A stretch of DNA of 64,000 bases from the IMG/VR virus record IMGVR_UViG_2718217859_000011, positions 23,757 to 87,756 of that record; one strand, written 5' to 3'. The position numbers and the translations under genes are program-made. This document shows, in pieces, positions 11,878-52,202 of the stretch. Source of the DNA: a virus (taxonomy: Duplodnaviria; Heunggongvirae; Uroviricota; Caudoviricetes). The notes under the pieces are model-generated. The model was not told the origin of the DNA, made no database searches, and saw nothing but the letters and a program-made list of their open reading frames with translations. Every line of letters begins with the position of its first letter. Within the stretch, counting starts at the first letter, position 1.

Positions 11878-12371
11878 TAAGCCCCCACGTAATTCCCTGA
11901 CAGATACCATTCATCACCCGATACAGCGCGCTTGCTGCTTTTCCGTAAGCACCGCTCACGACGCGCCAGAAAATTGTTTCGTTCTGGCTGGGAGTGGCTT
12001 TCACGGAATGCCTCCATCCACACCGTTGCAGCTCGACGGAATAAGCTCCTAGACTCCAGTTCTTCAGCCTGGCGGGTCAGGCACAAAATCACCCGGGGGT
12101 CGTTAGTGCCGACATAGAAATTGCGCACAGGTCTGGTTTCACGAACAGATTGTGGTTCCGGCTCCTGCGCTCTCTCAGTCAGGCGCGGGAAATGTCTGCG
12201 TGTATCTCCTTCACAACGGTGAGCCACACGCCCACTCTGACGTAACTTGCTTGCTGACTGCAGAACGCGCTGCCGTGAGTAACCAGCAAAAGCATCCGCA
12301 ATGTCTCCGGAAGTACACCCCGGATGGGCTTCAATGAATTTCTGAACTTCATTCAAAAGACTCATAATCAC
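11877..12371 (-). CDS. Hypothetical protein (164 aa) in the position of the replication partner gene
   Basis: ATGA overlap with the stop of the O-like fragment; no DnaC or lambda P signature seen. Confidence 0.45.
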   Translation of the reverse strand: MIMSLLNEVQKFIEAHPGCTSGDIADAFAGYSRQRVLQSASKLRQSGRVAHRCEGDTRRHFPRLTERAQEPEPQSVRETRPVRNFYVGTNDPRVILCLTRQAEELESRSLFRRAATVWMEAFRESHSQPERNNFLARRERCLRKSSKRAVSGDEWYLSGNYVGA

Positions 12372-12769
12372 CCCCTGAATCCTGCCGGGATCTGGCTGTA
12401 GTCCACGTTGTCGTAACTGGCTTTGAAGTACGGGTCCTCGCGTCTGGCTGCAGATACTGCAGGAACTTCCCAGGATTCTTCGAAATGACGATCCGGACCA
12501 AAGAACGTGACAGCCTGTTTCACAAATTGTGTGCCGCTGTTACCCATCGCAGATACCCAGCCCGCGTAGCGTTTCACACCTTCCAGCATGGTTTCGGGGT
12601 TTACCCCCTCATTCAAACGGGCTTTCCAGGCTTTGAAGGCTGCAGATTTTAAATTGCCACCAGCACGTTTGGGATAGGCCAGCCATGCCTGCTCAAACTC
12701 CGGAGAGTATTCCGGTCGGTTTGAACGAACTCGCACAGACTCATCAGCAGATGCACCAACAGCTATTGG

Positions 12770-12925
12770 TTCATTGACTGGTTCTTTGACTGGTTCAAAA
12801 GAGTGACTGGTTCTGGGTGAATCTCCTGCACTACCCCCTGGTGCAACTCCTGCACTACCTGGTGAATTTGCTGCACCAGATAGTGAATTATTTGCACTAC
12901 CCCCTAGTGAATCTCCTGCACCATC
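12770..12925. repeat. Iteron-like direct repeats (lambdoid ori within the O gene)
   Basis: Tandem imperfect repeats (tgactggttc x3; tgcactacc..ggtgaat units) that remain in frame and encode GSAG-type linker repeats. Confidence 0.5.
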
Positions 12926-12946
12926 AAGATGAAGGAGATAGATATT

Positions 12947-12951
12947 ACTTG
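12947..12951. repeat. Target-site duplication ACTTG (left copy) of the Mu-like insertion
   Basis: Identical 5 bp at 51963-51967. Confidence 0.6.
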
Positions 12952-13110
12952 TGTGGGGTAGTGATCAATTCTGGGCGGACTTAGTGCAGCCTGGTAGAAC
13001 CAGCAAGCCTTGTGTGGCGCGGGGTGTGGTGATTTAGTGTGATTCTGGGCGGATTTGTGAGAAATGACCAAAAACGCTTTTTTTTGCGCTTTTTTCTGGG
13101 CGCTTTTGAT
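12952..13110. repeat. Mu-like left end with three direct TTCTGGGCG-containing repeats (putative transposase binding sites)
   Basis: caattctgggcgga (12966-), gattctgggcgga (13040-), ttttctgggcgc (13093-); terminal TG. Confidence 0.5.
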
Positions 13111-13263: not shown

Positions 13264-13926
13264 TTATGCTGATTTCTTGTTTACAGGCTTAGTTTCTTGC
13301 TCCGGTGTGACGGGAACGCGATCACCTGGTGTTCCAGCACAGAAAATAGCTTTGGCGCGGCGCAAAATCTCTTTGTCATTTTCCTCATCGCCAGCTAATG
13401 CCATGCAAACAGCGTCTTTAAGCGATTGCCTGATGTTCAGGCTTTGAATGGCCTTCCTTTGTTCCTCAAGTTCGCTATCGGCTTGCTTGGTTTGCCTGGT
13501 GGGTTGCTGTAGGCGTTCAAGGACTCCTTTGATGCCAATACAACACAGCATATCAATAAGACGCTCTCTATCTTCTGGAGTAGCTCGCCTTAGTATTTCA
13601 TCGACAATACTTGTGTTTGGGCGGTTAACGTCTTCTGTAGGCACCTTTTTTTCTATTATTGGATCACGATCGCCCTCACCGTAGACCAGCCATTCCAGTG
13701 ATACATTCTCTAATTTTGCTATCGTAGCGACCACATTTAGGCCGGGAGTGGTGCCTTTCTCAAAGTAGTTATTTATGGTCGAGTACGGCAACCCCCAGTC
13801 TGAGGTGGCTTTACGCAGACTCCTAGTGCCAACCAGTTGCTTGATTCTGTCCTGAATGCTTTCTTTTCTATTCTGAGAAAAGGAAAAATCATCGGCGGTT
13901 TGTTTACTCACTTTCTTTCCTCTCAA
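13264..13926 (-). CDS. Mu-like repressor (c / Repc family)
   Basis: 220 aa, divergent from ner; N-terminal DNA-binding region and C-terminal region resembling Mu repressor. Confidence 0.65.
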   Translation of the reverse strand: MRGKKVSKQTADDFSFSQNRKESIQDRIKQLVGTRSLRKATSDWGLPYSTINNYFEKGTTPGLNVVATIAKLENVSLEWLVYGEGDRDPIIEKKVPTEDVNRPNTSIVDEILRRATPEDRERLIDMLCCIGIKGVLERLQQPTRQTKQADSELEEQRKAIQSLNIRQSLKDAVCMALAGDEENDKEILRRAKAIFCAGTPGDRVPVTPEQETKPVNKKSA

Positions 13927-14062: not shown

Positions 14063-14079
14063 CTTTTAAGGGTAACCTA

Positions 14080-14316
14080 ATGATGGTTAGAAATGAAGTA
14101 ATGAACAAAGACTGGCACCGCGAGTACATCGTTGCCGCTGTGCACACCAAAGGTTTTACATTGCGTGAACTTTCTGAACGCGCTGGTCTAAAAAAAGACT
14201 CTTTAAAAAATGCACTGTATCGCTCATGCCCTAAATATGAACGCATCATAGCCGATGCTATTGGTGTGGAACCTGCGGAGATCTGGCCAAGCCGGTATGC
14301 CAGTAAGGCGGCGTAA
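14080..14316 (+). CDS. ner: Ner-like DNA-binding protein
   Basis: 78 aa; WHREYIVAAVHTKGFTLRELSERAGL...IADAIGVEPAEIWPSRY resembles Mu Ner/Nlp. Confidence 0.8.
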   Translation: MMVRNEVMNKDWHREYIVAAVHTKGFTLRELSERAGLKKDSLKNALYRSCPKYERIIADAIGVEPAEIWPSRYASKAA

Positions 14317-16358
14317 TGTTTTATTCAGCCAATGAGCTGGCCGGTCTTCCTGGTTTGCCCGGTACAGTTCAGGGGGTGCGCTGGACGCTCAATCGGATCA
14401 CAGATACGCACCCGGAATGGAAGCGCAAGCGCGAAGGCACCAAAGCATTCGAGTATCACATCGACTGCCTGCCCGCTGAAGCGCAGAAAGTTTTACGTAA
14501 GCGCCTGACCCATCAGGTTCTGGAAGATGCACAACTGCCCGCCGTGGTTGAGCAGAAGGCAGTTAAAAACGTCGCCGTTCGCGATGAACTGGAAGTGATG
14601 GTCAAATGCCCGGAACTGGCATTACGCGAAGTCCAGGCACTGACCGACAAGCAAAAGGCCATTGCTGATGCGCGGATATTGCTGGCTACTGAAGTGCATA
14701 AACTGCGTGAATACGCCGGAATGACCAGGAAGGCCGCGTTAAAGCACATCGTTGATGGTGTGCGCATGGGGGCGTTGCCTGACCGCATTATCGAAGCAGC
14801 GAATACTGCAAATGCACGTCAGGGAAAGCGAACCGGTGTCAGCACCGGCAGCCTGGATAGCTGGTACTCCAGCTGGGTGATGGCGCGCGGTGATGCCAAT
14901 CAGTTACTGGCGTTACTGGCTCCCGGTCATCATAAGGGAACACCGTGGGAGCAGGTCTGGTGGTTGAGCGATTTCTTTATGTTCTATCGCTCATGGAAGC
15001 GCCCGACCGTTGAATATGCGTATCGCGAGTTTTCAGCCTGGTGGCATGAGAAGCACGCGAACGATGCGGGAATGCTGGCGGCACTGCCTTCCGTTCACGC
15101 AGTAAGACGGGTATTAAGCAGTGTCCCGGTGATTGTTAAGGAGCGTTTCCGCTCCACCGGTTCAGCCTGGCGTTCGCTCAATCCCTTTGTGCGACGCGAC
15201 TGGAGCACATTACCGGTTAATGCGGTATGGGTCGGGGATGGTCACTGTATGAAACTGATGGCATTCAGCCCTGCCACCGGGAATACATTCCGGCCAGAAG
15301 TGACGCTGGTTATGGATGCAGGACAACGCTTTATTGTGGGCTGGTCGCTGTCCCTGTCGGAGAACGTGGTGGCCGTTGCTGATGCATTGCGTCATGGCAT
15401 GTCACAACACGGAATACCGCTGATTTATTACTCCGATAACGGGGGCGGTGAAAAAAACCGGGTGCTTGATGCCGATATTACCGGGATTTTGCCCCGGCTG
15501 GGTGTGGAACATCACACGGGGATACCAGGTAACCCGCAGGGGCGCGGGGTAATAGAACGGGCAAACAAAGGAATACCCAAAGATGTGGCTCTGAGTTTCC
15601 AGACGTACTGCTCAAAAAATGCAGACAAGGAAACGGTGATGATGCAGCAACGCATCACACAGTCAGCCATTAAGGCCACCCACAAAGGGAAGGAGCTGAC
15701 AAAGCGGCAGGTTAAAGCAATGGGAGAAGTCCCCACCTTTGAGCAATTGATGGCCGCAATAGAGCTGGAGGTAAAACGGTATAACAACCGCCCACACAGC
15801 AGCCTTCCCCGCAAAGAGGATGGCGAACATTACAGCCCGGCAGCGTATCGCCGGAAACTGATAAAAGAGCAGAAAGCTGAAATCGACATGCTGTCGCCGG
15901 AAGAACTTCACGAAATGTTCCGACCGGAAAGCATCTGCACAGTGCGACGCGGTGAAGTGGTGTTATTCAGAAACATCTATTTCTCCACAGAACTGGCAGC
16001 AGAGCACGGAAATGAAGTCAGGGTTTGTTACGACATTCACGACGCAAACAGCGTGATTGTCAGGCGGATGGACGGTTCTTATATCTGCGATGCCATCTGG
16101 AACGGTAACAAGGTTGATGCGTTCCCTAAAGCTGTTATCGAACAACAGCAGGAGAAACGCACCAGAGGCCGCATTGCACGGGCCGCGCAGAAAATCGAAG
16201 AGGCTAAACGCGAGCTTACTCCGGCTATTACGCAGAAACCTGACTTTAATTTTGGATTTGGTCTGGAGCGCCCGGAGAAAAAGGAAAAAGAAGAACTTTA
16301 TTTATTCGCATCTGAACGCGAACGCAATTTAAAGAAAAACGGCACAAACAACCGTTAA
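14316..16358 (+). CDS. A: Mu-type DDE transposase A
   Basis: 680 aa; N-terminal end-binding region (ANELAGLPGLPGT) and DDE core resembling MuA; followed by the B gene. Confidence 0.85.
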   Translation: MFYSANELAGLPGLPGTVQGVRWTLNRITDTHPEWKRKREGTKAFEYHIDCLPAEAQKVLRKRLTHQVLEDAQLPAVVEQKAVKNVAVRDELEVMVKCPELALREVQALTDKQKAIADARILLATEVHKLREYAGMTRKAALKHIVDGVRMGALPDRIIEAANTANARQGKRTGVSTGSLDSWYSSWVMARGDANQLLALLAPGHHKGTPWEQVWWLSDFFMFYRSWKRPTVEYAYREFSAWWHEKHANDAGMLAALPSVHAVRRVLSSVPVIVKERFRSTGSAWRSLNPFVRRDWSTLPVNAVWVGDGHCMKLMAFSPATGNTFRPEVTLVMDAGQRFIVGWSLSLSENVVAVADALRHGMSQHGIPLIYYSDNGGGEKNRVLDADITGILPRLGVEHHTGIPGNPQGRGVIERANKGIPKDVALSFQTYCSKNADKETVMMQQRITQSAIKATHKGKELTKRQVKAMGEVPTFEQLMAAIELEVKRYNNRPHSSLPRKEDGEHYSPAAYRRKLIKEQKAEIDMLSPEELHEMFRPESICTVRRGEVVLFRNIYFSTELAAEHGNEVRVCYDIHDANSVIVRRMDGSYICDAIWNGNKVDAFPKAVIEQQQEKRTRGRIARAAQKIEEAKRELTPAITQKPDFNFGFGLERPEKKEKEELYLFASERERNLKKNGTNNR

Positions 16359-16376
16359 TTTAAAAGGTATTTAATT

Positions 16377-17270
16377 ATGAGTTTAATTACGCAATTAAAT
16401 GACGTAATGGCCCGTCGCGGCTATACGCAGACCCACGTCGCCCGTGCTATTGGTCGTAGCAGCGCCGTTATCAGCCAGTATTTGCAGGGTAAATATCAGG
16501 GCGATATGTCTGATATTGAAGAACGCATTTCTGCCTTTGTGACCCGTGAGCGGGAAAAAGAAAACAGCCGCCGTATTAAAGCAAAGTTTGTGACCACCGG
16601 TATGGCTGCCAAAGGACTGGAGGTGCTGGCCTACGCTCACCTGGAATGTGAAATCTGTGTGCTGTATGGCGCAGCAGGTCTTGGCAAAACAATGATTCTG
16701 CGTGAATACGCCGCCAGAAACCGGGATGCGGTCCTGATTGAAGCCGACCCGGGCTATACAGCCAGAACACTGCTTGAGGAGCTGTGCCGCCAGCTGGGGG
16801 TAAAAGTTCGCGGCAATATCCACGAACTGATTGATGCATGTGTGCGAGAACTGCGTGATTCCGGTCGTCTGCTGATGGTGGACGAGGCTGAACTGCTCCC
16901 CTATCGCGCACTGGAGGTTCTGCGCCGTCTGCATGACAAAGCGGGTATCGGGGTTGTTCTGGCGGGTATGCCTCGCCTTCTGATTAACCTCAAGGGGCGT
17001 CGTGGTGAGTTCGCCCAGTTATACAGCCGCGTGGCGCTGGCGCTTAACCTGGGCGATACGTTGTCGCAGGAAGATTTTAACCAGATAGCTACCGGGTTGA
17101 TGCCGGAAGCAGCAGAGCCGGAAATCAGCGAGGCGCTTTATACACGTTCGCTGGGTAATGCCCGCCGTCTGTTCAAGCTGGCGCGTGGTGTGTACCGGAT
17201 TTGTGATATCAGCGATGCGCCGGTCAGTGTGCAGGCCATTGATAAATTCGCAGAAATGTTAATTCACTGA
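16377..17270 (+). CDS. B: Mu B-like ATP-dependent target-DNA activator
   Basis: 297 aa; N-terminal HTH, Walker A GAAGLGKT, Walker B LLMVDEAE. Confidence 0.8.
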   Translation: MSLITQLNDVMARRGYTQTHVARAIGRSSAVISQYLQGKYQGDMSDIEERISAFVTREREKENSRRIKAKFVTTGMAAKGLEVLAYAHLECEICVLYGAAGLGKTMILREYAARNRDAVLIEADPGYTARTLLEELCRQLGVKVRGNIHELIDACVRELRDSGRLLMVDEAELLPYRALEVLRRLHDKAGIGVVLAGMPRLLINLKGRRGEFAQLYSRVALALNLGDTLSQEDFNQIATGLMPEAAEPEISEALYTRSLGNARRLFKLARGVYRICDISDAPVSVQAIDKFAEMLIH

Positions 17271-22129: not shown

Positions 22130-22597
22130 ATGCAGACCTTCAGTGAAACAGATCTTCGCGATGCGCAGGTACTGCTGCCCGATTCCGTACAGCAACTGAT
22201 TAGCGTGATTGGCTTCCCCGCCCTGACCCGGTTAATCCGTTCTTTTGGTGGCGTGACGTTAAGCGGTAAAACCGGCGCACACGCCGGACGCACCGGCGGT
22301 GTCCATGCCCTGTTACATGACGTGCTGACCGAAGACGAAATCAACAAATTGATCCGCTTTCTTGGCGGTGCACCGTTTTACATTCCTCGTTGCGATCATG
22401 CGTTACGTGCCCTGCGTAACACCCGTTTTATGGCTGATTTACAGCAGCATGTAAAAGACGGATGCTCACACCGGCAGGCGCTGGCACTACTCTGTCCCCG
22501 TTACGGGATTTCAGACCGGTACGCATGGCAACTGATACACCGACGACAAAAACAGACTTCGCTGAAAAGCCCCACCCAGGTGGGGCTTTTTGATTAA
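22130..22597 (+). CDS. Mor/C-family transcription activator (Mu middle/late regulator)
   Basis: 155 aa; C-terminal HTH region (CSHRQALALLCPRYGISDRYAWQLIHRRQ) typical of Mor/C. Confidence 0.6.
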   Translation: MQTFSETDLRDAQVLLPDSVQQLISVIGFPALTRLIRSFGGVTLSGKTGAHAGRTGGVHALLHDVLTEDEINKLIRFLGGAPFYIPRCDHALRALRNTRFMADLQQHVKDGCSHRQALALLCPRYGISDRYAWQLIHRRQKQTSLKSPTQVGLFD

Positions 22598-23747: not shown

Positions 23748-24125
23748 ATGTCGGAAAAATTCCGTTTCAGTCAACGTAGCGAGAAAAATCTGGCTGGTGT
23801 AAAACCACAACTGGTGGCGGTTGTACGCCGTGCGCTGGCGTTGTCGGACGTCGATTTTGGTATTACCGAAGGTTTACGCACGAAAGAACGTCAGAAACAA
23901 CTTGTCGCTGAAGGCAAGAGCCAGACCATGAACAGCCGTCACCTTACTGGCGATGCTGTTGATGTCGTGGCTTACGTTGGTGGCACCATTTCATGGGACT
24001 GGCCGTTATACGAAAAAATCGCCCGAGCCTTTAAACAGGCTGCCGCAGAGCTGGGTGTCGCCATCGAATGGGGCGGAGACTGGAAAACGCTGAAAGACGG
24101 GCCTCATTTCCAGTTAAAACGCTGA
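23748..24125 (+). CDS. Endolysin, peptidase M15-like (L-alanyl-D-glutamate peptidase type)
   Basis: 126 aa from MSEKFRFSQRSEKNL; motifs SRHLTGDAVDV and DGPHFQ; GGAGG RBS. Confidence 0.65.
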   Translation: MSEKFRFSQRSEKNLAGVKPQLVAVVRRALALSDVDFGITEGLRTKERQKQLVAEGKSQTMNSRHLTGDAVDVVAYVGGTISWDWPLYEKIARAFKQAAAELGVAIEWGGDWKTLKDGPHFQLKR

Positions 24126-27477: not shown

Positions 27478-27480
27478 TTA

Positions 27481-32498: not shown

Positions 32499-32508
32499 GG
32501 AGCAAAAC

Positions 32509-36484: not shown

Positions 36485-36496
36485 GGAGCGCGGTAA

Positions 36497-39393: not shown

Positions 39394-39423
39394 GTAAGCG
39401 ACTCGTCAGAACCGTATTGATAT

Positions 39424-40995: not shown

Positions 40996-41014
40996 ATCCT
41001 CACTTTACAACGGG

Positions 41015-41362
41015 TTATATGCGGATTCCAGCGCGTTCCGTTCGTTTCGGGTGCTTCCAGTTGATACCTTCAAGAAGCATGGATAACTGAGCCGGAGTAA
41101 GGTGCACCTTGCCGTCACGGGTGACTGGCCAGACGAAGCGGCCCCGCTCCAGGCGTTTGGTGAAGAGGCACAGTCCGTCACTGTCAGCCCACAACACTTT
41201 TATCTGGTCACCCCGGCGTCCGCGGAAGATGAACAGGTGTCCGGAGAACGGGTCATCCTTCAGGACGTTCTGAACTTTTGATGCCAGGCCGTTAAAGCCA
41301 TTTCGCATATCGGTGATACCTGCAACCAGCCAGATACGCGAACCTGCAGGGAGAGATATCAT
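41015..41362 (-). CDS. IS66-family TnpB (Orf2)
   Basis: 115 aa; typical size and sequence of IS66 Orf2. Confidence 0.8.
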   Translation of the reverse strand: MISLPAGSRIWLVAGITDMRNGFNGLASKVQNVLKDDPFSGHLFIFRGRRGDQIKVLWADSDGLCLFTKRLERGRFVWPVTRDGKVHLTPAQLSMLLEGINWKHPKRTERAGIRI

Positions 41363-42039
41363 CAGTGGCTGCTCCCTTTTATTTCGCGGATAAGTGTCTG
41401 TAATAACGCCGGCGTCAGTTTACCTTTAAGCCTGAGAGTTCCGGCCGGCAGAACCAGCTCACAACACAGACTGTCGGACGGTGTATTTATCTGCTCTGGT
41501 TCCTGTGCGGGGGCCGGGATTTTATTATCCGGCTCCGGCGTTAACGTCACGGGAAGCAGTGCCGGCATATTTTTTCCGGAAGGCAGCAGGCCACCTTTCC
41601 GGTATTGATGGCGCCAGTTGAAGAGCAGGTTATCGTTGATTCCGTTTTCCCGGGCGATCTGCGCCACACAGGCTCCGGGCTGCAGTGACTGCTCCACTAA
41701 GGCGATTTTAAACTCATAAGGGAAGTTGGGCCGCCGGGGACGTTTTTTTACCACGGGGGCTTCGGATATAACGGTGCTTTCAGGACGTACGACTGGTACC
41801 GTGGAAAATTGTCCGTAAAGGCAGGCATCAAGTTCCTGCTCCGACATGCCTGCGGGCAAAGGCCACGAAAGGCCAGCTCTCCGAAAGCGCACGAACATAC
41901 TACAAACTGTTGATTTTGGTACACCCAGGCGACGCCCGGCCACAACCCGGGGTAAATGTTCTTCAAAGTGAAGACGTAAAGCTTCAGTGATCCAGGTCCG
42001 GTGTTTCATACGATAGTGTCCATTAAAAATGATGGACAT
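41362..42039 (-). CDS. IS66-family accessory protein TnpA (Orf1)
   Basis: 225-aa ORF with ATGA overlap to tnpB; HTH-like N-terminal region. Confidence 0.55.
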   Translation of the reverse strand: MSIIFNGHYRMKHRTWITEALRLHFEEHLPRVVAGRRLGVPKSTVCSMFVRFRRAGLSWPLPAGMSEQELDACLYGQFSTVPVVRPESTVISEAPVVKKRPRRPNFPYEFKIALVEQSLQPGACVAQIARENGINDNLLFNWRHQYRKGGLLPSGKNMPALLPVTLTPEPDNKIPAPAQEPEQINTPSDSLCCELVLPAGTLRLKGKLTPALLQTLIREIKGSSH

Positions 42040-42092
42040 TATTTTTGTAGAGCCGGAGGAAACAGACCAGACGGTTTAAATGAGCCGGTTAC

Positions 42093-42100
42093 TGCTTAAA
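42093..42100. repeat. Target-site duplication TGCTTAAA (right copy) of the IS66-family element
   Basis: Matches 39386-39393. Confidence 0.7.
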
Positions 42101-42361
42101 CGGGATAATGAGCTGAAAGCCGCAGCTGATGCTCTGCCATCACCGGAGCAGGTGAACAAAGCCGCCGGAAACACAACGCCTGAATCAGCATCAAAGCAAC
42201 CCGGACGCATCACCCAGCCGGAATACCTCACGCACTGGGGACCACCTGCCAGCCCCATTAATTTCACCACACAACTGGTGCTCGATGGTCAGGTCGTGGC
42301 GGAGGCAGTGAACAAATACAACCTTCAGGACGGCAACAGAGGCACGGGAGGAACTTACTGA
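42093..42361 (+). pseudogene. Tail tape measure gene, 3' part
   Basis: In phase with 37414-39393 across the duplicated 8 bp; ends by overlapping the next gene. Confidence 0.7.
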
Positions 42362-43710
42362 TGGGCTGGGCTGAAAACCTGCAAAACGCCTCCTTTCGTG
42401 GCGTGCAGTTTGATGTACTGAACACGGATGAACAAATCAGCCGCGACCATGCGGTCTATGAATACCCGTTTGTTGACGGGGCGGATTTGCACGACCTCGG
42501 ACGCAAGGCGCGACCGTTCCGCATGACGGCGTTCCTGTGGGGGGAGTATTACGAATATAAACTTGAAAAGCTGATCGCCGCCCTGGATAAAGGCGGTGAT
42601 GGTGAGCTGATTCACCCGGTTTACGGCTCCGTACCGTCGGTGATTGTGACCGGCTACAGCATCCGCCATGACGCAGAAAGCCCGGACAGCTGCACCATCG
42701 ACATGAGTTTTCTGGAGAACCGCACCGGCAGCGCGTTGTTCAGCACCCCGTTACCGGAGCTGTTTGCACAGAAGTTATTTGAAGAACTGGATAAGTTACT
42801 GGCACAGTTAAGCGAATTATTTGACGCTGTTACGGCCCCTTTAAAGACCATTAACAGCGTGATTAAAAAAATCCAGACGGTGCGTGCCACGCTGGTGAAT
42901 ACCCTGCTGACATTCAAAAGCGATTTTCTCTCATCCATCGACAATATGATGTCACTGGCCAGCGAACCCGGAAAGTTCATCGGCGGGCTGGCAGAGGTGC
43001 TGGAAATCCACACGTCAGATGTCGGGCACGCGGTGCCGGTGCTGGAGCGTACTGATTCCGCCACCACGACCGGACTGACCGGGGAAGACAGCGTCGCCAG
43101 TTCTGCGACAGTGATGACCTGCTGGAATGAGGTGATGGCAGATATGGATGAGCTGGTCGCACTGCCGGTCGCACTGGTCAGCGGTGATAAAACGCCGTCT
43201 GTGGCACTTCCGCCGGATGCGTCCGTGGAAGACGTGCAGGACGTGAAAGCGGCATATGCGGTTCTGGCAGCCTCAGAGCTGGCCAGCGTGGCGACGGCGA
43301 TACTGTCAGATGAGGCCCAGTCAGAGCAGCTTATACCGGCGGATATCGGGCGACTGGTCGGGGATGTGCGCACCCGCTTACAGGCAGCCATCACGCTGTT
43401 CCGTGAACGCTATGAAGGCGAACGCGAACGGATAACCGAAACCGCATCACCGCTGGGGCTGATGTACCCGGAAATCATTCAGAGCATGAAGAACGTGGCG
43501 GCATCCGTGCAGGATGTCGGCCTGCTGGTTCTGTCTCGCCGCCCACCGCTGACGCAGAAACAGGTGCAGGCGGACAGCTGTCTGCTGTTGCTGGCGTGGC
43601 AGTGGTACGGCGATTACAGCCGTGCGGCAGAGCTGCAACGTCTGAACCCGCAGCTGCGTGACCCGAACAACATAACCGCCGGGATGGTGATTAATGCCTA
43701 TGCAAAATAA
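42361..43710 (+). CDS. DNA circularisation protein (Mu N/gp43-like)
   Basis: 449 aa immediately after the tape measure. Confidence 0.7.
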   Translation: MGWAENLQNASFRGVQFDVLNTDEQISRDHAVYEYPFVDGADLHDLGRKARPFRMTAFLWGEYYEYKLEKLIAALDKGGDGELIHPVYGSVPSVIVTGYSIRHDAESPDSCTIDMSFLENRTGSALFSTPLPELFAQKLFEELDKLLAQLSELFDAVTAPLKTINSVIKKIQTVRATLVNTLLTFKSDFLSSIDNMMSLASEPGKFIGGLAEVLEIHTSDVGHAVPVLERTDSATTTGLTGEDSVASSATVMTCWNEVMADMDELVALPVALVSGDKTPSVALPPDASVEDVQDVKAAYAVLAASELASVATAILSDEAQSEQLIPADIGRLVGDVRTRLQAAITLFRERYEGERERITETASPLGLMYPEIIQSMKNVAASVQDVGLLVLSRRPPLTQKQVQADSCLLLLAWQWYGDYSRAAELQRLNPQLRDPNNITAGMVINAYAK

Positions 43711-44905
43711 CGACGACAAAATCAGCCTGGTCATTGCCGGAAGGTCGCATTCTGACTGGAGCAGTTATCGTATTGACAGCGATTTCCTGAAAGCCGCCGA
43801 CGGCTGGCAGCTTCAGCTGGGACTGCCTGAAAAGGTGTTCCCGGCGGATATCGTCCGGGGTGCGCCGGTCCGTTTGCAGGTGGGAGACGAGACGGTCCTC
43901 AGTGGTCGCGTGGACAGCGTGCGCCGCAGTGTATCCCGTCAGAGCTGCACGCTGACCCTGTCCGGGCGTGATGATGCCGCCATCCTGGTGGACTGTGCCG
44001 CACCGGTGTTCAGCGCCAACCAGCTGACACTGGACGAGGTCATCGACAGGATAGTCAGACCGCTGGGGATACAGCGCATCCGTATTCAGGCGTCCGGTGT
44101 GTCACGTAATGACAAGGTCGTTATAGAGCCGGGGATGCGTGCGTGGGATGCACTGGCTAAAGCTGCCGCCGGTCGCGGCTTATGGCCGTGGTTTGAGCCT
44201 GACGGGACGCTGGTTGTGGGTGGCCCTGACTACACCACCACGCCGGTGGACACGCTGATTATGAAGCTGGACGGCACCGGGAACAACGTGATGGAGCTGG
44301 ACGATACCCGGTCCATTAACGGCTGTTTCTCCGAGCTGACGGTGCTGGCCCAGAGCCACGCCCGCCGCGCAGACAGCAAGAAACAACTGGCCGTGGTGCC
44401 GCTGGATATCTGGAACGAGGACGGCAGCGTGCGCACATTGTCCGGGCAGGACAGCGGTAATACGGACAGTGGCCAGACGGGCATTCATAACATGAAAGCC
44501 GTGGCCACCGACCCCACCGTGGATTATTACCGCCCGCAGATAATCACCCAGGGCGACACCAGTAACATGGAGCAGGTGAACTGGCGCGCCAAAAAAATGA
44601 TGAGTGATGCCCGTCTGTCGGGGCTGGATATCGTCGCACTGGTTGCAGGTCATCGCACGGCGGACGGTGTCCTGTGGCAGCCCGGCCAGCGTGTGCGGAT
44701 TGTCAGCGAACCCCACGGCATCGACGCCATCTTTTTCCTGATGGGGCGTGAGTTCAGCGGAGGCCGGAGCGGGCAGACAACCCGGCTCCGCTTTAAGGAG
44801 GATGGCGTGTGGATACCTGATGCCTTCCCGCGCGAGACGAAACGCCATCACCGCAGGGGCAAAAAGAAAAAAGAGGTCGCCATTGTTAAGGTCTGGGAGA
44901 AATGA
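43694..44905 (+). CDS. Baseplate hub protein (Mu P/gp44-like)
   Basis: 403 aa; synteny. Confidence 0.7.
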   Translation: MPMQNNDDKISLVIAGRSHSDWSSYRIDSDFLKAADGWQLQLGLPEKVFPADIVRGAPVRLQVGDETVLSGRVDSVRRSVSRQSCTLTLSGRDDAAILVDCAAPVFSANQLTLDEVIDRIVRPLGIQRIRIQASGVSRNDKVVIEPGMRAWDALAKAAAGRGLWPWFEPDGTLVVGGPDYTTTPVDTLIMKLDGTGNNVMELDDTRSINGCFSELTVLAQSHARRADSKKQLAVVPLDIWNEDGSVRTLSGQDSGNTDSGQTGIHNMKAVATDPTVDYYRPQIITQGDTSNMEQVNWRAKKMMSDARLSGLDIVALVAGHRTADGVLWQPGQRVRIVSEPHGIDAIFFLMGREFSGGRSGQTTRLRFKEDGVWIPDAFPRETKRHHRRGKKKKEVAIVKVWEK

Positions 44906-45558
44906 TGTGGGACAAGGTTAATCAGCGCATACAGCAGGCACTGGCCGCCGTTCGCCAGGCATTCAGGGTGGTGACCGGTACGGTGGACAGTTCGACCAAA
45001 GTACAGTTGCTTCAGCTGAACGGGCTGGCAGGCGAACAGCTGGACGGTGCGGAGTATTTTCAACATTACGGCCTCACCACATCCCCGCCGCCCGGCTCGA
45101 TGGGTATTGCCGTTCCGCTGAATGGTAATACCTCCCATACCGTCGTCGTGGCCACAGAGCACGGCGCATATCGCCTGACGGAATTGAAACCCGGGGAAGT
45201 GGCCCTGTATACCGACGAAGGCGCGAAAATTGTGCTGAAGCGCGGACGTGTGATTGAAACGGAGTGTGATATTTACCGGGTGAAATGTAATTCGTTTGAA
45301 GTTGAAGCAAAGGACAGCGCTGGTTTTATTACTCCCCAACTTACCGCAAGTGAGCAATTAATTGCTGAAGGGAAAATATCCGGTAATGGGGGTATGGCCA
45401 TTAAAGGCGGCAAAGGAAAATATACTGCCACCTTTGAAGGCAATATCAACCACACAAGCGGTGTGATTACCTCCGTTGACGTCACCATTAATGGCGTTAA
45501 AATCGGAACGCACAAACACCCGACCCCACACGGCATGTCTGACACGCCGGTTAATTAA
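44902..45558 (+). CDS. Baseplate assembly protein (Mu Q/gp45-like)
   Basis: 218 aa; synteny. Confidence 0.6.
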   Translation: MMWDKVNQRIQQALAAVRQAFRVVTGTVDSSTKVQLLQLNGLAGEQLDGAEYFQHYGLTTSPPPGSMGIAVPLNGNTSHTVVVATEHGAYRLTELKPGEVALYTDEGAKIVLKRGRVIETECDIYRVKCNSFEVEAKDSAGFITPQLTASEQLIAEGKISGNGGMAIKGGKGKYTATFEGNINHTSGVITSVDVTINGVKIGTHKHPTPHGMSDTPVN

Positions 45559-45611
45559 GTGCTGAACACCCTCACCTGATTCTGACCTGTCCATGCTGCC
45601 AGACTGGCGGC

Positions 45612-45962
45612 ATGGACCAGACGATTTCACCTGCAACCGGCGACTACGAACGCCGCCGGATTTATACACTCCATAACGCGGTTTATCTGCGACTGGCGAC
45701 ACCGCTTGGCAGTTACTGGGCGGATGCGTCGCTGGGGTCACGCCTGCACGAACTGAAGCGGGAAAAAGACGTTTCCCGTGTTCACAGGCTGGCGGCGCAG
45801 TATGCCAGCCAGGCACTTCAGCCCCTGCTTGATGACGGGCGGGCAAAATCCATTACCGTTGACACGAAAGCGGGCCAGCGAGGCTGGCTGTTGCTGTTAA
45901 TCACCGTCACGGATAACGCGGGCACACCGCAGACGTTTGAACACCCTGTGAGGATTATGTAA
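45612..45962 (+). CDS. Baseplate protein (Mu gp46-like)
   Basis: 116 aa; synteny. Confidence 0.5.
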   Translation: MDQTISPATGDYERRRIYTLHNAVYLRLATPLGSYWADASLGSRLHELKREKDVSRVHRLAAQYASQALQPLLDDGRAKSITVDTKAGQRGWLLLLITVTDNAGTPQTFEHPVRIM

Positions 45963-47041
45963 TGCCGTTTCCTGTTCCGGGCGTTGCTGAAAACACAGAA
46001 CGCCAGCTACGTGATATCGCTAACGCCCTGCCGGGAGAAACCATCGACACCGGCGCTGACAGCGATTACCGCATTCGTGCAAATGCCGTATCCGGCGTGG
46101 CGGACGGACTTTATATGCATCAGGGATGGATCCTCCGTCAGGTGTTTCCTGACACGGCAGACCCTGAATATCTGGAGCTGCACTGCCGTACGCGCAATGT
46201 TTTTCGTAAAAAAGCAACGGCCTCATCCGGTCCGGTAGTGATTACCGGCACACCCGGTAAGACGCTGCCAGCCGGTGCGGAAATTCGTGGTGAAGGTGTC
46301 AGCGTGGCCACCACAGCAGACTGCACCATCGGTGATGAAGGCAGCGCAGAGGTGACGGTAAAAAGCACCGCCACGGGTGTACAGACGAACGCATCCGCAA
46401 CGCAGACGGCAACGCTGGTCAGCCCGCCGGAAGGCATCAACAGCACGGTGACGATTAAATCCCTGACCGGTGGAACGGACAGGGAAAGTGACACCGACCT
46501 GCTGGCGCGTTATCTGGATATCCTGCGCAGGCCGCCCGCTGGCGGTAACAAATATGATTACAAACGCTGGGCGCTGGAAGTGGATGGCGTTACCTCAGCA
46601 TATGTGGAGCCGTTACGTCGTGGGTTGGGGACGGTTGATGTGGCCATTACGTCAGCCAATGACCTCCCTTCGCAGGAACTGATTAATGCCGTGCTGGCAC
46701 ATATTGAGGAAGTCCGCCCGGTCACAGCGAAGGACACAATGGTACTGGCCCCGACGAAAAAAGCCGTTGATTTCGTTGTTCGGGTAAAAACCAGCGGCCT
46801 GACCGTTGAGCAGATAAAACCGCAGATAACTGACGTTATCACGGATTTTATGAACCGGCTGGAGCCGGGGCAGGAATTAATAATTTCACAACTGGAAACC
46901 CAGATTTCATTAATTTCCGGTGTCAGTGACCGGCGAATCATTACGCCAGCAGACAACGTAAAAGCCATTATTAACGCGTCAACGTGGGAATGGCTGCGCC
47001 CGGGAAATATTGATATTCAGTCTTTTCCACGTGAGGGGTGA
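45962..47041 (+). CDS. Baseplate J-like protein (Mu gp47-like)
   Basis: 359 aa; synteny. Confidence 0.65.
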   Translation: MPFPVPGVAENTERQLRDIANALPGETIDTGADSDYRIRANAVSGVADGLYMHQGWILRQVFPDTADPEYLELHCRTRNVFRKKATASSGPVVITGTPGKTLPAGAEIRGEGVSVATTADCTIGDEGSAEVTVKSTATGVQTNASATQTATLVSPPEGINSTVTIKSLTGGTDRESDTDLLARYLDILRRPPAGGNKYDYKRWALEVDGVTSAYVEPLRRGLGTVDVAITSANDLPSQELINAVLAHIEEVRPVTAKDTMVLAPTKKAVDFVVRVKTSGLTVEQIKPQITDVITDFMNRLEPGQELIISQLETQISLISGVSDRRIITPADNVKAIINASTWEWLRPGNIDIQSFPREG

Positions 47042-47045
47042 TTTT

Positions 47046-47618
47046 ATGAATATGGTCGATTTATTTCGCGCCATGCTGCCACCTGTCAGTTATGACCTGA
47101 ACGGGAAATATATTTCCGCAGAACTGACAGCCGAGGCTGACGTCATGGAGGCCGTGAAGGCCTCAGCGGCGCGCGTTCTGGCACAAATCACCCCGTTGCA
47201 GGCATCGATGACGCTGTCCGACTGGGAGCGCGTGTACAGTGTTGTCCCCCGTGAAGAGGCAACACAACAGGAGCGGCGGCAGAACATTCTGGTAAAAATG
47301 GCAGCCACTGGCGGACTGTCAATCCCTTACTTTAAGAGCCTTGCCGCCAGTCTGGGCTATACCATCACCATTACGGAGCCGCGACCGTTCCGGGTGGGGA
47401 TAAACCGCTGCGGCGACCGTCTGCTGATACCGGAAATCCGCTGGGCGTGGCAGGTCAACGTTATCGGGACAAAAACACCGGTCTACCGGTTCAGAACGGG
47501 CGCATCGGCAACCGGCGAACCTCTGACGGCCTTTGGTGAATCCATTTTAGAAAACACGTTTAAAGACCTTAAACCGGCTTTTACAGACTGTTATTTTACG
47601 TATGAGGTGGAGGAATAA
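47046..47618 (+). CDS. Tail protein (Mu gp48-like)
   Basis: 190 aa; ATG at 47046. Confidence 0.55.
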   Translation: MNMVDLFRAMLPPVSYDLNGKYISAELTAEADVMEAVKASAARVLAQITPLQASMTLSDWERVYSVVPREEATQQERRQNILVKMAATGGLSIPYFKSLAASLGYTITITEPRPFRVGINRCGDRLLIPEIRWAWQVNVIGTKTPVYRFRTGASATGEPLTAFGESILENTFKDLKPAFTDCYFTYEVEE

Positions 47619-48421
47619 TGCAGAATTTAATGCCCCCGGTGAATACGCCGGATAAGTTATTTCATGATGGTGACCCGACTCAGGGAATTGAGGGAACCAT
47701 CGTTACTGCTGAATTTATGAATAATCATCAGGCAGCAACGCGTGATTTGCAGCAGGAGGTGATTAACGTCCTTAAAGAGGCTGGCGTCACCCCTGACCCG
47801 GAAAAACAAAACCAGCTGGTTGAGGCGCTGACCTCGTTTATTGGTCAGAAAGTCCCGGATGCATCGCTGACGCAAAAAGGCGTGGTGCAGCTTAACAGTG
47901 CTGTTAATAGTGAATCAGAAACAGAAGCTGCCACACCAAAAGCGGTCAAAATTGCGATAGATAACGCAAACGCCAGACTGGCAAAAGACCGTAACGGCGC
48001 AGACATCCCGAATAAACAGTTGTTTCTGGATAACATCAGCGGTGTGCCAAAAGCACGCAAGGTCAACGGTATGGCCCTGACTTCGGATATCACCATCAGC
48101 AGCATCAGCGGCAACGCCGGAACAGCAACCCGCCTTCAGAACGCCCGCAGAATCAACAATGTGCTGTTTGATGGCTCCAGCGATATCACAATCACCAGTA
48201 CCGATTCTGGTGCTGTGCGTAATTTCCAGTATACCAACGAGGTGTTTCATAATCCCGGCGGTGCTGAAATTACATGGACATTCCGGGCACCTTCCGGCTG
48301 TCAGTTGTCAGGCATTTATGTCCAGGAAACGGGAGATAATACAGCAGACAATATCGGTGGTGTGTATTACAAATCCGCGCAGATTTATATCAATGGCTCA
48401 TGGCGCACCGTATCCGGTTAA
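47618..48421 (+). CDS. Tail fibre protein (set 1)
   Basis: 267 aa; shares an ATPKAVK motif with the second fibre. Confidence 0.6.
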   Translation: MQNLMPPVNTPDKLFHDGDPTQGIEGTIVTAEFMNNHQAATRDLQQEVINVLKEAGVTPDPEKQNQLVEALTSFIGQKVPDASLTQKGVVQLNSAVNSESETEAATPKAVKIAIDNANARLAKDRNGADIPNKQLFLDNISGVPKARKVNGMALTSDITISSISGNAGTATRLQNARRINNVLFDGSSDITITSTDSGAVRNFQYTNEVFHNPGGAEITWTFRAPSGCQLSGIYVQETGDNTADNIGGVYYKSAQIYINGSWRTVSG

Positions 48422-48435
48422 TTAAGGAGAAAATA

Positions 48436-48960
48436 ATGGAACTCAGAAACGTCACGCGTTATTACCCGGAAGAAATGCCTTATGGTGAAAACATTCAGTA
48501 TTTCCGCAGTGAAGACGGACAGGATTTTTATGAATCACTGGATAAATTCACGAAGAAATACAAATTGTGTATTCACCCTGAAACCGGCGTGATTTATTCG
48601 ATGGCGGAAGACGTGTCCCGTCTTTATCCGGCTGGTTTCACTATTGTGGAAGTGGACGAACTGCCGGAGGGTTTTGGCATTGAAGCCTGCTGGTATTACC
48701 GGGATGGCGAAGTGCTGCCGGTTCCGGTTGATTATTCGCAACTGGCAGAAAAGCAACGCCAGCGTCTTCTGGCTGAAGCCAGGGACATCACCTCCGACTG
48801 GAAAACCGAGCTGGGACTGGGCACCATCAGCGACGATGACAAAGCCCGTCTTACGCAGTGGATGGCATATATCAAAGCGGTGAAGGCGCTGGATTTAAGC
48901 CTGGTCAGTGATAAATCTTCCTTTGATTTAATTCAGTGGCCGGAAAAACCTGACGTGTAA
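48436..48960 (+). CDS. Tail fibre assembly chaperone (set 1)
   Basis: 174 aa directly downstream of fibre 1. Confidence 0.65.
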   Translation: MELRNVTRYYPEEMPYGENIQYFRSEDGQDFYESLDKFTKKYKLCIHPETGVIYSMAEDVSRLYPAGFTIVEVDELPEGFGIEACWYYRDGEVLPVPVDYSQLAEKQRQRLLAEARDITSDWKTELGLGTISDDDKARLTQWMAYIKAVKALDLSLVSDKSSFDLIQWPEKPDV

Positions 48961-49008
48961 AACAGTAACGGTCGCTGTCTGGTGACCGTTTTCAGTTCAG
49001 AAGGCTTT

Positions 49009-51288
49009 ATGTCTGTATTAATTTCAGGAGCGCTGATTAATGGCGCTGGCATTCCGATGGCGGAATGCAAAATTTATTTAGATGCACTGGTTAATACCAG
49101 TGAAGTGGTTATTGAATCATTTGCGGTTATTGAAACCGATGCGGCGGGACAGTATGCCTTTGAAGCACAAAAAGGCAAATACACCGTACACATCAAACAA
49201 AAGAACGGCCCTAAGTGCTGTGTGGGTGATATTTCGGTTTACGATGACTCAAAGCCCGGCACACTGAATGATTTTCTGACCGCGCTGGATGAAGGCGACC
49301 TCAAGCCCGACGTGGTGAAACGCTTTGAGGAAATGGTGGCGCAGGCGCAGCAGAGCGCGGAAGCAGCAGCGGAAAGCGAGCGACAGGCCGGGCAACATGT
49401 CGCTGATGCGCAGAAGATAAAGGAAGACTGCGAGACGCTGGCGGATAACGTACAGCAGAATGCAGAAGCCGTTGCCGAAGACAAAAATCAGGTGGCGTTG
49501 CTGGCGTCATCTGCCACACAGGATGCAGCCCGCGCAGAGCAGGCTGTCAAGGATGCCGACACGATAGTCCGGAAAGCGGTCGATAAACTTGCTGATGCTG
49601 CAACGCTGACCGGCGAGGCAAAAGCCAGTGCCGGAGCTGCCGCACAAAGCGAACAGAATGCGGAAAATCACGCTGATAATGCAGCACAAAGCGCACAGCA
49701 GACCGCGCAGGATGTGCAGGCAACGGTCACAGCCCGCAGTGATGCGGAACGTTTTGCGGGTGAGGCAGAAAACAGCGCACAGTCATCAGGCACAGCGCGG
49801 GACGAATCAGTCGATGCCGCCGAACGCGCCCGCCTTTATCATAATACCGCATCATCAGCAGCGACCAGTTCAGGACTGTCGGCAAATGCGGCGCTGGGGT
49901 ACAAAAACAGCGCCGCTGAATACGCCCGACAGGCTAAAGCCAGCCAGGATGCAGGTGCAGACAATGCGCAGGAAGCGAAACAGTACAGGGATGAGGCACA
50001 GCAGATAGTTGATGACCTGAATGCAACAAATGCCAGCACGACAGAAAAAGGTCTGGTGCAACTCTGTAGTGATACGGACAACGACAGCGAGGAACTGGCT
50101 GCCACGCCAAAGGCTGTCAAAGACGTCATGGACGAGACGAAAACAAAAGCGCCACTGGACAGCCCGGCCTTCACCGGCACCCCAACCACCCCAACCCCAC
50201 CGGATGATGCCGCCGGTCTGGAAGCAGCGAACGCAGCGTTTGTGCGCAAACTGCTTGCTGCGCTGGTTGGCTCATCGCCGGAAGTTCTGGACACCCTGAA
50301 CGAGCTGGCAGCGGCGCTGGGCAATGACCCGAACTTTGCGACGACAATCACAAACGCGCTGGCAGGCAAACAACCGCTTAATGACGTCTTAACGGCAATC
50401 AGCGCACTGACGCAACGGGCAGATAATCTTCTGTACTTCAATACAGACGGGAATGCCTCACTGTCTCTGCTGTCAGAGAAGGGCCGCGCATTACTGGCGC
50501 ATGACACGGCTGAAGCCATGCGCACGGAGCTTGAGCTGAGCGCGTCTGCGACGATGGAACCCCAGAGTGATATCCGTGACCGCACACCGGGCAGGCTGGC
50601 CCTGTCCGGGATGTATGGGTTTGGACAGGCATTCACCAGCGCCGAAGCTCTGTCATTTAACGGACAGGCTGATTTCGTTGAGTGGTTGAAGAAAGTCACG
50701 CCGGGGCGGTATGCGGTCAGTATTGCGGACTCCTCCACGCTGCTGGTGGGCACCACGAAATTTAACGGTATCATTGATGTGATGTGGTCACCCTCTGATA
50801 ACAATGGTTCAGACTCAGCGCGTAAATTCAAAACGCTGCTGTACTACAACCAGTATTACGAGGATGAGCACAGCATACATTGTATGCGTTATCGCTACAG
50901 TGGTAACAGCTGGAATGCAACATCAAGCCTTATTGTGTATGACGGCAACTCCCTGGCATATCTGATGTCCTCAACCGCCGGTAATGGTCCGTTCTCATAT
51001 TACCAATACCCGGCCGTCGGTGTGCCGATTATGGCGGTATATCAGGGAGAAAGTTTTGGTGAAAATGCTTCTCTGGGACTCGGTGATACTGTGCCGGGTT
51101 CCCGTCTTGGTCCTCTGGCCATGAGTGCACAGGTTAGTGATACAGGGACATACGCATCCTCACCGCAGGTTGTGATTGGCGGTGCCGGTGAATACAACTT
51201 CCCCGGTCGTTACAAGGCGCTTTCGGGCCTGGGTAACAATTATGGTACTCAGCGTGGCTTTATCGGTCTTTTTGTACGCATTGAGTAA
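49009..51288 (+). CDS. Long side tail fibre protein (set 2)
   Basis: 759 aa; Ala/Gln-rich repeats, ATPKAVKDVMDE motif, C-terminal variable domain. Confidence 0.7.
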   Translation: MSVLISGALINGAGIPMAECKIYLDALVNTSEVVIESFAVIETDAAGQYAFEAQKGKYTVHIKQKNGPKCCVGDISVYDDSKPGTLNDFLTALDEGDLKPDVVKRFEEMVAQAQQSAEAAAESERQAGQHVADAQKIKEDCETLADNVQQNAEAVAEDKNQVALLASSATQDAARAEQAVKDADTIVRKAVDKLADAATLTGEAKASAGAAAQSEQNAENHADNAAQSAQQTAQDVQATVTARSDAERFAGEAENSAQSSGTARDESVDAAERARLYHNTASSAATSSGLSANAALGYKNSAAEYARQAKASQDAGADNAQEAKQYRDEAQQIVDDLNATNASTTEKGLVQLCSDTDNDSEELAATPKAVKDVMDETKTKAPLDSPAFTGTPTTPTPPDDAAGLEAANAAFVRKLLAALVGSSPEVLDTLNELAAALGNDPNFATTITNALAGKQPLNDVLTAISALTQRADNLLYFNTDGNASLSLLSEKGRALLAHDTAEAMRTELELSASATMEPQSDIRDRTPGRLALSGMYGFGQAFTSAEALSFNGQADFVEWLKKVTPGRYAVSIADSSTLLVGTTKFNGIIDVMWSPSDNNGSDSARKFKTLLYYNQYYEDEHSIHCMRYRYSGNSWNATSSLIVYDGNSLAYLMSSTAGNGPFSYYQYPAVGVPIMAVYQGESFGENASLGLGDTVPGSRLGPLAMSAQVSDTGTYASSPQVVIGGAGEYNFPGRYKALSGLGNNYGTQRGFIGLFVRIE

Positions 51289-51302
51289 TGAGGAAATCAG
51301 GC

Positions 51303-51881
51303 ATGAAAATCAGAGCGGTGAAAGGCATCAGAAACGCACATTATCTTGAAAATGGTGCGGTTGACTGCGAGGTGTTATTTGAAGGTGAAACGGAGTTTGC
51401 CCTGTATACCGCCATACAGGATGACACGGCCCCGACAGGCCAGCACATCTGGCAGGAGCTGCAAAGCGGGAAATGGGGCGAAATCGCCCCGTTCACTGTC
51501 ACGCCTGAACTTATTGCAGCGGCAAAGGATGCCAAAAGGCGGGAAATTGAGGCATGGCGCGACAGTCAGGAAAACGTTGAGTTTATTTTCACGTTTGATG
51601 GCCGTCGTTTTGATGGCGGAAAAACCTCGCAGTCACGCCTTGCCCCCGTGGTTGCAACAGCACAGGCCGGACTGCTTCCGGATGGTTTTTTCTGGACTGA
51701 TGCGGATAATAACAACGTCGTACTGACCAGGGAGAAACTTATTGCGCTGAACGATGCCATGATGGTGGCCATGGTGGCGGAGGGCTTTAAAATCCACGAA
51801 CGTCAGCGGAAGATGAAAGAGGAACTGAGTAGCCTGGAGGATTTACGCTCAATCAGAGCGATGGCGATTAGTGGTAATTAG
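51303..51881 (+). CDS. Tail fibre assembly chaperone (set 2)
   Basis: 192 aa directly downstream of fibre 2. Confidence 0.65.
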   Translation: MKIRAVKGIRNAHYLENGAVDCEVLFEGETEFALYTAIQDDTAPTGQHIWQELQSGKWGEIAPFTVTPELIAAAKDAKRREIEAWRDSQENVEFIFTFDGRRFDGGKTSQSRLAPVVATAQAGLLPDGFFWTDADNNNVVLTREKLIALNDAMMVAMVAEGFKIHERQRKMKEELSSLEDLRSIRAMAISGN

Positions 51882-51962
51882 CGGTCAATTCTGGGCTTTT
51901 GGGTTGCGCGCTCCCCGCCCGGAATTGCGCGTCAATTAGCCCAGAAAAAAACGCGAAGTTAC
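51880..51962. repeat. Mu-like right end with inverted copies of the end repeats
   Basis: gcccagaaaaaaacgc and cgcccggaattg are reverse complements of left-end motifs (gcgcttttttctgggcg, caattctgggcg). Confidence 0.5.
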
Positions 51963-52202
51963 ACTTGAGTTACCTTTTTCACCTTTCCGGGTGACTTTTT
52001 TTACCAGCCCAGACTCACAAAGGGCCGCAATATGATTCATCACAGAACGTTTGCTAATCTCGCACTGGTCAGCAATATGCTGGTAGCTGGGCCAGCACTC
52101 CCCCTGATCGCTGGCATTATCAGCCAGCTTGATCAGAACCAGTTTTCGCAATGGATTACCCACTCGAATTTTCATCGCTTTAACCATCAGCTCCATACTC
52201 AT
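51936..52202 (-). pseudogene. 5' fragment of lambdoid O-like replication initiator gene (N-terminal HTH domain), truncated by the Mu-like insertion
   Basis: 88-aa ORF whose last 9 codons are encoded by the Mu-like right end; joins in frame with 12368-12951. Confidence 0.6.
51963..51967. repeat. Target-site duplication ACTTG (right copy) of the Mu-like insertion
   Basis: Matches 12947-12951. Confidence 0.6.

Follow-up and report, generated by a model that had tools for sequence, protein, structure and literature searches.

A Mu-like prophage with a 4-bp target duplication nested in the replication initiator gene of a lambdoid prophage of Escherichia coli 08-00022

The 64,000-nucleotide stretch of DNA analyzed here (the window; positions 23,757 to 87,756 of the IMG/VR record IMGVR_UViG_2718217859_000011) is the reverse complement of positions 5093695-5157694 of the E. 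coli 08-00022 genome (NZ_CP013662.1), and a position in that genome record equals 5157695 minus the window position. It carries a Mu-like transposable prophage of 39,012 bp (positions 12952-51963, + strand) that lies within the replication initiator gene of a lambdoid prophage, is flanked by a 4-bp duplication, and is itself interrupted by an insertion sequence (IS) of the IS66 family. There are, therefore, three levels of nesting: an IS in a Mu-like prophage in a lambdoid prophage. An earlier, sequence-only reading of this DNA had proposed the transposition of a Mu-like prophage into a lambdoid initiator gene, and this proposal is borne out by the rebuilt gene, which is the same as an intact allele found in E. 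coli OkiPb01676. The extent of the duplication with the position of the right terminus, the family of the initiator, and the completeness of the Mu-like prophage, however, had to be revised, as did the length of the rebuilt protein.

Deletion of positions 12952-51967 joins the minus-strand segment running from 52202 to 51968 with the one running from 12951 to 12368 in a single open reading frame (ORF) of 819 nucleotides (nt), that is, 272 amino acids (aa) and a stop codon. The two fragments had been expected to fall into one frame after removal of the block and one repeat copy, which they do, although the product is somewhat shorter than the predicted 280 aa or so. The N-terminal codons (51968-52202, - strand) encode a helix-turn-helix (HTH) domain, with HTH_36 at residues 17-67, whereas the C-terminal part (12368-12951, - strand) comprises 192 codons and the stop and is in frame with the former once the insert is removed. 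RefSeq already flags both halves as pseudogenes, described by the Prokaryotic Genome Annotation Pipeline (PGAP) as "missing C-terminus" and "missing N-terminus," respectively. In its present form, the N-terminal ORF (51936-52202) has 88 codons, of which 80 are native and 8 are read-through codons from the right end of the Mu-like element, with a stop at 51936. The insertion falls after codon 80, between the HTH domain and a linker encoded by iteron-like repeats.

More than 30 phages and hundreds of E. coli genomes have intact 272-aa homologs of the rebuilt protein. Its identity to the replication proteins of SfV (orf39) and mEp460 and to those of a dozen Stx2c (Shiga toxin 2c) phages is 99.3% over all 272 residues, and it matches, residue for residue, the intact initiator of OkiPb01676 (WP_000061516.1; 100% identity). 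The genome of OkiPb01676 contains the same outer prophage, with identical protein accessions for the integrase, IS1A, Rha, PerC, and the KilA-N protein, but with an unoccupied site that has a single ACTTG. Across the junction, the window with the Mu-like element deleted aligns with the OkiPb01676 prophage at 99.965% identity (8 mismatches and no gaps in 22,958 bp). Another unoccupied site, in the strain GB089, reads ...GATATTACTTG|AGTTACC... and also has ACTTG only once. Among 5,426 complete E. coli genomes, each half of the initiator gene is contiguous in hundreds, whereas either junction with the Mu-like element is found in just one. Because the rebuilt gene equals the intact allele and the flanks match those in OkiPb01676 without a gap, the event was a simple insertion in which none of the flanking host-prophage sequence was lost.

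The exact boundaries of the element follow from a comparison of nine independent copies of the same Mu-like family, including the one in the window. These copies occupy the O-like gene described above, a capsid gene, a gene for a molybdopterin enzyme, RHS, an intergenic site, mhpT, eutC, fliH, and a holin gene. All nine insertions have TGTGGGG at the left end and ...GAAGTTAC followed by an A at the right end, whereas the fifth base before the left end is variable (A, A, C, C, A, T, A, G, and C). Given that the A is invariant on the right while the fifth base on the left is not, this A is the last base of the element. The termini in the window (5'-TGTGGGG...GAAGTTACA-3') are thus the canonical 5'-TG...CA-3' (TGTGGGG...GTTACA), with a 4-bp duplication, CTTG, at 12948-12951 on the left and at 51964-51967 on the right and a single copy of that site in GB089 and OkiPb01676. 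The duplication had previously been given as the 5-bp ACTTG, which is indeed found at 12947-12951 and 51963-51967. As a bare pentamer, ACTTG is unremarkable, with 37 copies across the window, and it carries weight because it coincides precisely with the boundaries of the element. That a fifth base matches is fortuitous: the first A of the right repeat belongs to the element itself, which ends in ...ACA-3', so that the one-base offset of the termini (...GTTAC) noted in the sequence-only reading vanishes. We also considered ACTTG as a part of the element, as BLAST matches in other genomes ran a few bases past its ends, and rejected it, since these matches represent chance or partial similarity of the flanks.

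The duplications at the nine sites are CTTG, ACTT, TTTG, CTTC, CTGG, ATTC, CACT, ATTG, and GTCG. The length is 4 bp in every case, and five of these insertions discriminate between 4 and 5 bp. Empty sites were confirmed for four of the nine; those rebuilt with a 4-bp duplication reproduce the intact mhpT (500 of 500 positions) and fliH (450 of 450), in both cases without gaps. The end repeats provide a further indication. The left end (12952-13110, + strand) has three TTCTGGGCG-type repeats, which start 18, 92, and 143 nt in from the terminus and are putative transposase-binding sites, and the right end (51800-51963, + strand), read inward, has repeats that start at 18 and 40 nt and an inverted copy at 67 nt. 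Only with a CA right end does the first TTCTGGGC repeat have the same distance, 18 nt, to each terminus.

The inner interruption is equally well delimited. A 2,699-bp IS (39394-42092, - strand; assigned by PGAP to the ISCro1 family) encodes tnpA, tnpB, and tnpC, is bounded by terminal inverted repeats GTAAGCG.../GTAACCG..., and is flanked by two copies of an 8-bp duplication, TGCTTAAA, at 39386-39393 and 42093-42100. The tnpA-tnpB-tnpC arrangement, GTAAGCG-type inverted repeats, and 8-bp duplication are the features of the IS66 family. Without the IS and one copy of the duplication, the tape-measure gene is again a single ORF of 746 aa, ending at 42361, where the next gene starts; the other Mu-like genes compared all have the same length as in the relatives. 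An identical IS66 TnpB protein (WP_000624622.1) is encoded in GB089. Since infection would have been impossible for a phage that had lost its tape measure, the IS most likely hopped into the prophage after its integration.

Taken together, these data fit the following succession of events, which we consider very likely. A lambdoid prophage of approximately 49.5 kb resides at yjjG/prfC of E. coli 08-00022. A Mu-like phage would have infected this lysogen and used DDE transposition to insert itself into the initiator gene after codon 80. Its transposase would have joined the two 3'-CA ends to phosphates of the target with a 4-bp stagger between them, and repair of the gaps would have given the CTTG duplication. 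An IS66-family element already resident in the strain lineage would have entered the tape-measure gene of the Mu-like prophage at a later time, generating the 8-bp duplication. In the outer prophage, the initiator is gone, and 39 kb of DNA in the opposite orientation lies between the early-right operon and the nin and Q genes; owing to these two changes, its induction would be expected to lead neither to replication nor to the switching on of the late genes. The inner prophage retains its ends, repressor, and A and B genes and, for that reason, may still be capable of transposition, although it would not be expected to build tails. The sequences themselves establish the insertion, its exact boundaries, the duplications, the identity of the rebuilt genes, and the 4-bp length across the family, whereas the order of events, the loss of function, and a 4-bp stagger as the biochemical cause are deduced from them. 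Several points weigh against parts of this scheme. The relative timing of the two insertions is drawn solely from the need of an infecting phage for a tape measure. The stagger of 4 bp is read from insertion scars, and another prophage of the same cell could support replication of the outer prophage in trans. Furthermore, the case is built on a genome assembly, which leaves a small formal chance of an assembly error.

We put the probability of such an error very low. The chimera would have joined a Mu-like prophage from elsewhere to the lambdoid prophage, and the presence of the junction in a single genome would agree with that, as would the abundance of repeated prophage modules in this genome, e.g., the DUF4376 tail-fiber region found at 7 places. 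However, both junctions coincide exactly with the conserved termini and come with a target duplication, which a misassembly would not create; the Mu-like element is present in a single copy in 08-00022; and its flanks rejoin with not a base lost or gained. Even less credible is the idea that the initiator fragments are two distinct genes by nature or that site-specific or homologous recombination brought the block in. The sole point in its favor is that both fragments are ORFs, and it is already refuted by the intact homologs in phages, the empty site of GB089, and the identical unsplit allele of OkiPb01676. The intact homologs in E. coli genomes, the occurrence of the element at many unrelated loci with no flanking sequence in common, and its gene content, in which a DDE transposase of the Mu type is present and an integrase of its own is absent, also speak against it.

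The classical 5-bp Mu duplication, with the element ending in ...GTTAC, one base short of CA, can be considered highly improbable and, for this Mu-like family, already refuted. Five bases do match on both sides in the window and in 3 of the other 8 insertions, but the fifth base on the left is C, C, T, G, and C in the remaining five, as opposed to the invariant A on the right; the intact mhpT and fliH do not have that A; the first end repeat is equidistant from the two termini only with the A in the element; and the sister Sp18-like lineage has been annotated with 4-bp duplications. The duplication is 5 bp in Mu and 6 bp in B3, and scars of 5 or 6 bp have been used to recognize such insertions (PMC8705779); neither length was found among the nine insertions compared here. 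On the basis of these nine scars and two GenBank feature annotations for the Sp18-like phages, we believe that the E. coli Mu-like prophages of the window and Sp18-like lineages probably integrate with a 4-bp stagger, unlike the 5-bp stagger of Mu. A literature search found no paper stating a 4-bp duplication for Mu-like phages, and a search on the E2348/69 prophage and on the strain 08-00022 produced nothing useful. If true, the 4-bp stagger would imply a different geometry of the target DNA in these transpososomes, and prophage finders that rely on 5- or 6-bp scars would misplace these ends by one base, as the sequence-only reading did.

Genes of the Mu-like element were assigned from the PGAP/RefSeq annotation combined with Pfam domains and PHROG profiles. 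The early region encodes a repressor with a CI-type HTH (13264-13911, - strand; Pfam Phage_CI_repr; phrog_3037, transcriptional repressor, 3e-59; PGAP), followed on the + strand by a Ner-like HTH protein (14080-14316; Pfam HTH_35, 5e-25; PGAP) and the 680-aa transposase A (14316-16358). The latter matches Mu-transpos_C with 57.8 bits (Pfam cut-off, 21.7), HTH_Tnp_Mu_1 with 40.5 bits (cut-off, 23.3), and phrog_310 with 1.9e-196; its rve core scores 25.5 bits, which is under the cut-off of 32.6. Directly after A comes the gene for a MuB-like AAA+ transposition ATPase (16377-17270, + strand; AAA_22, 8.7e-23; phrog_296, "DNA transposition protein," 3.5e-104). A Mor-type late activator (22130-22597, + strand; phrog_836, 4e-42; "Mor transcription activator family" in PGAP) precedes the head module (25837-33417, + strand), in which PGAP and Pfam recognize the large terminase, Mu-type portal (Portal_Mu, 1.5e-95), gpF (Phage_Mu_F), gpG, a protease, and the gpT major head protein (Mu-like_gpT, 2.6e-94). 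The + strand further encodes, at 35063-39393, the tail sheath, tube, chaperones, and, in its first 660 codons, the N-terminal part of the tape-measure protein (Pfam sheath domains and PhageMin_Tail; PGAP) and, at 42101-51881, its C-terminus, a DNA-circulation/baseplate-hub protein (phrog_184), baseplate genes, and tail fibers with their assembly proteins (PGAP; tail-fiber PHROGs). Holins and an endolysin are also encoded in the block, which has no integrase of its own among its genes according to Pfam and PGAP. After subtraction of the IS and its duplication, the element is 36,305 bp long. The earlier description of a complete Mu-type gene order is upheld with respect to the order but not with respect to completeness, as the IS66-family element splits the tape-measure gene.

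The order of genes in the block is the same as in Mu, namely, c, ner, A, B, mor, lysis, head, contractile tail, and fibers, and it includes the Mu-type late genes for the Mor activator, Mu portal, gpF, gpT, and a contractile tail with the DNA-circulation protein. In addition to Pfam transposase, portal, F, and gpT domains, the element shares with Mu its TG...CA termini, multiple end repeats, and insertion at many unrelated loci. It differs from Mu in the length of the duplication (4 bp versus 5 bp), and neither gin nor mom has been annotated by PGAP in the window copy. Similarity of the transposase to MuA (4FCY) is marginal (phmmer E value, 4e-4), and because of that, the "Mu-like" label is based on the Pfam and PHROG profiles and gene order. 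Its best match among phage transposases, in the Pseudomonas phage VW-6B, has 50% identity. A DNA search of 50,697 phage records revealed no close relative of the element, with only a 165-bp patch matched.

Complete E. coli genomes contain relatives of this element: the family is represented in 49 of the 5,426, including enteropathogenic E. coli (EPEC) E2348/69, where it is inserted in eutC. In 40 genomes, the element ends show 87 to 100% identity across their first 300 bp. The E2348/69 prophage and those in ~48 other genomes share with the window copy its gene order, protein lengths, and 4-bp duplication, and their DNA is ~90 to 95% identical to it over most of the length. The window copy differs from them in its insertion site, the IS66-family insertion, an endolysin of the M15-peptidase type, and a lambdoid-type tail-fiber module at the right end. 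The endolysin gene (23748-24125) codes for an M15 metallopeptidase, as in STEC316, whereas a GH108 enzyme is encoded at the same position in 4 of 6 relatives. A DNA-methyltransferase gene at 25095-25835 is missing from one of the relatives compared. The relatives diverge from the window copy beyond position 47757. The tail-fiber and assembly genes at 49688-51572 match the side tail-fiber module of the outer prophage (positions 5179264-5181147 of the genome record) with 95.9% identity across 1.9 kb, which suggests an exchange of modules between a myovirus-type and a siphovirus-type prophage. These two modules are inverted relative to each other and ~71 kb apart, and they could serve as a substrate for inversion.

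Three of the nine insertions compared, namely, the one in the window and those in NZ_CP082831.1 (in a capsid/prohead-protease gene) and NZ_CP041431.1 (in a holin gene), are in prophage genes. Mu-like phages inside Shiga toxin (Stx) prophages and other prophages of Shiga toxin-producing E. coli (STEC) have already been reported; in CC119 STEC, 6 of 10 Mu-like phages are in mobile elements, and several Stx phages carry one (PMC10132054). Deliberate targeting of prophage origins was considered as an explanation for these figures (3 of 9 here, 6 of 10 in the literature) and not adopted, as the same pattern would result if insertions in core genes were removed by purifying selection. The Sp18-like Mu phages in the Stx phages LC727881 and LC727895 are likewise nested in lambdoid prophages, with annotated 4-bp duplications GATG and AGAG, but their transposase is only 44% identical to the one in the window and their ends are TG...TA. 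As annotated, LC727881.1 and LC727895.1 have TG at the transposase-proximal end and ...TATA-3' at the other. The insert in LC727881 is at 35.7 kb, whereas the initiator gene is found at ~10.2 to 11.0 kb in the records of sister Stx2c phages.

The nested prophage described here is a well-resolved new instance of a known process, and the 4-bp duplication, which database annotators have already marked for the sister lineage, is its sole departure from the textbook description of a Mu-like phage. By landing in resident prophages, Mu-like phages help to turn them into defective remnants; in this case, the initiator is lost and the early operon is cut, and the invader is in turn crippled by an IS. 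For genome annotation, the 88.6-kb "prophage" at prfC becomes three elements, and the 4-bp duplication with TG...CA ends corrects the boundary calls for the family.

The interrupted gene deserves a closer look, as it had been designated a lambda-O-like initiator. Pfam assigns the rebuilt protein to HTH_36 (44.1 bits), with a DnaD_N match (24.3 bits) that is under the cut-off of 27, and it has no match to Phage_rep_O (PF04492) at E values of 0.01 or less. In PHROG, it matches the "replication initiation" (O-like) families with an E value of 1e-87, and its C-terminal half matches DnaD-like loader and primosomal families. Within the coding sequence, Tandem Repeats Finder detects an iteron-like array of ~4.6 copies of the 24-nt unit GTGAATCTCCTGCACTACCCCCTA (12817-12921), which ends ~30 bp from the insertion point, and a second repeat with a 12-nt unit (12767-12797). 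The 24-nt repeats encode the G/S/A/N-rich linker that opens the C-terminal fragment, and the array is, by analogy with the lambda ori within O, the presumed origin of the outer prophage. The gene follows the cII-like and Rha genes and precedes the nin-like and Q genes. Thus, iterons inside the initiator coding sequence, the early-right operon position after cII-like/Rha, and an N-terminal HTH are common to this gene and lambda O/ori, whereas the HTH_36/DnaD_N-like N terminus, the DnaD-like C terminus, and a PerC-family regulator gene next to it, where a P-like helicase loader would be expected, set it apart from lambda. The "lambda-O-like" designation is adequate in terms of position, iterons, and PHROG function but not of membership in the Phage_rep_O family, and the disrupted gene is best regarded, from its domain matches, as an HTH_36/DnaD-like analog of O.

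The outer prophage extends from an integrase gene (62762-64000) beside yjjG to a DinI-like gene beside prfC, spanning ~88.6 kb with the insert and the ~49.5 kb mentioned above without it. RefSeq marks several signs of decay in it: a portal gene with a frameshift, a yfdP gene interrupted by an internal stop, and an IS1A in the early-left region; the coordinates are 60051-60748 of the window and, beyond the window, 5161677-5163268 of the genome record. The IS1A insertion is common to the OkiPb01676 prophage, and these marks are independent of the Mu-like insertion. It is reasonable to regard the outer prophage as likely defective, as the sequence-only reading did, and that view is strengthened by the annotated portal frameshift, IS1A, and yfdP stop. 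The loss of its initiator is plain, whereas the replication failure and a polar effect on the nin and Q genes across 39 kb would be the expected consequences.

Several other features of the outer prophage can be listed here. The Rfam C4 antisense RNA (83.6 bits) and isrK (67 bits) are adjacent to each other at 53023-53211 (- strand), just upstream of the Rha/Ash regulator gene, an arrangement that resembles the P1-type c4/ant anti-repressor control module. Beside the integrase gene, a 505-aa gene (61092-62609) is annotated in RefSeq as an anti-phage dCTP deaminase (phrog_9198; dCMP-deaminase PHROGs) and can be viewed as defense cargo. In the late-regulatory region, the segments at 3593-3791 and 4623-4876 (- strand) contain an STnc100 small RNA (148.7 bits) and a small tRNA cluster, in which ARAGORN finds Arg-tct and a tRNA with a CAT anticodon (Ile in RefSeq), with a "tRNA-OTHER" annotated by RefSeq between them.

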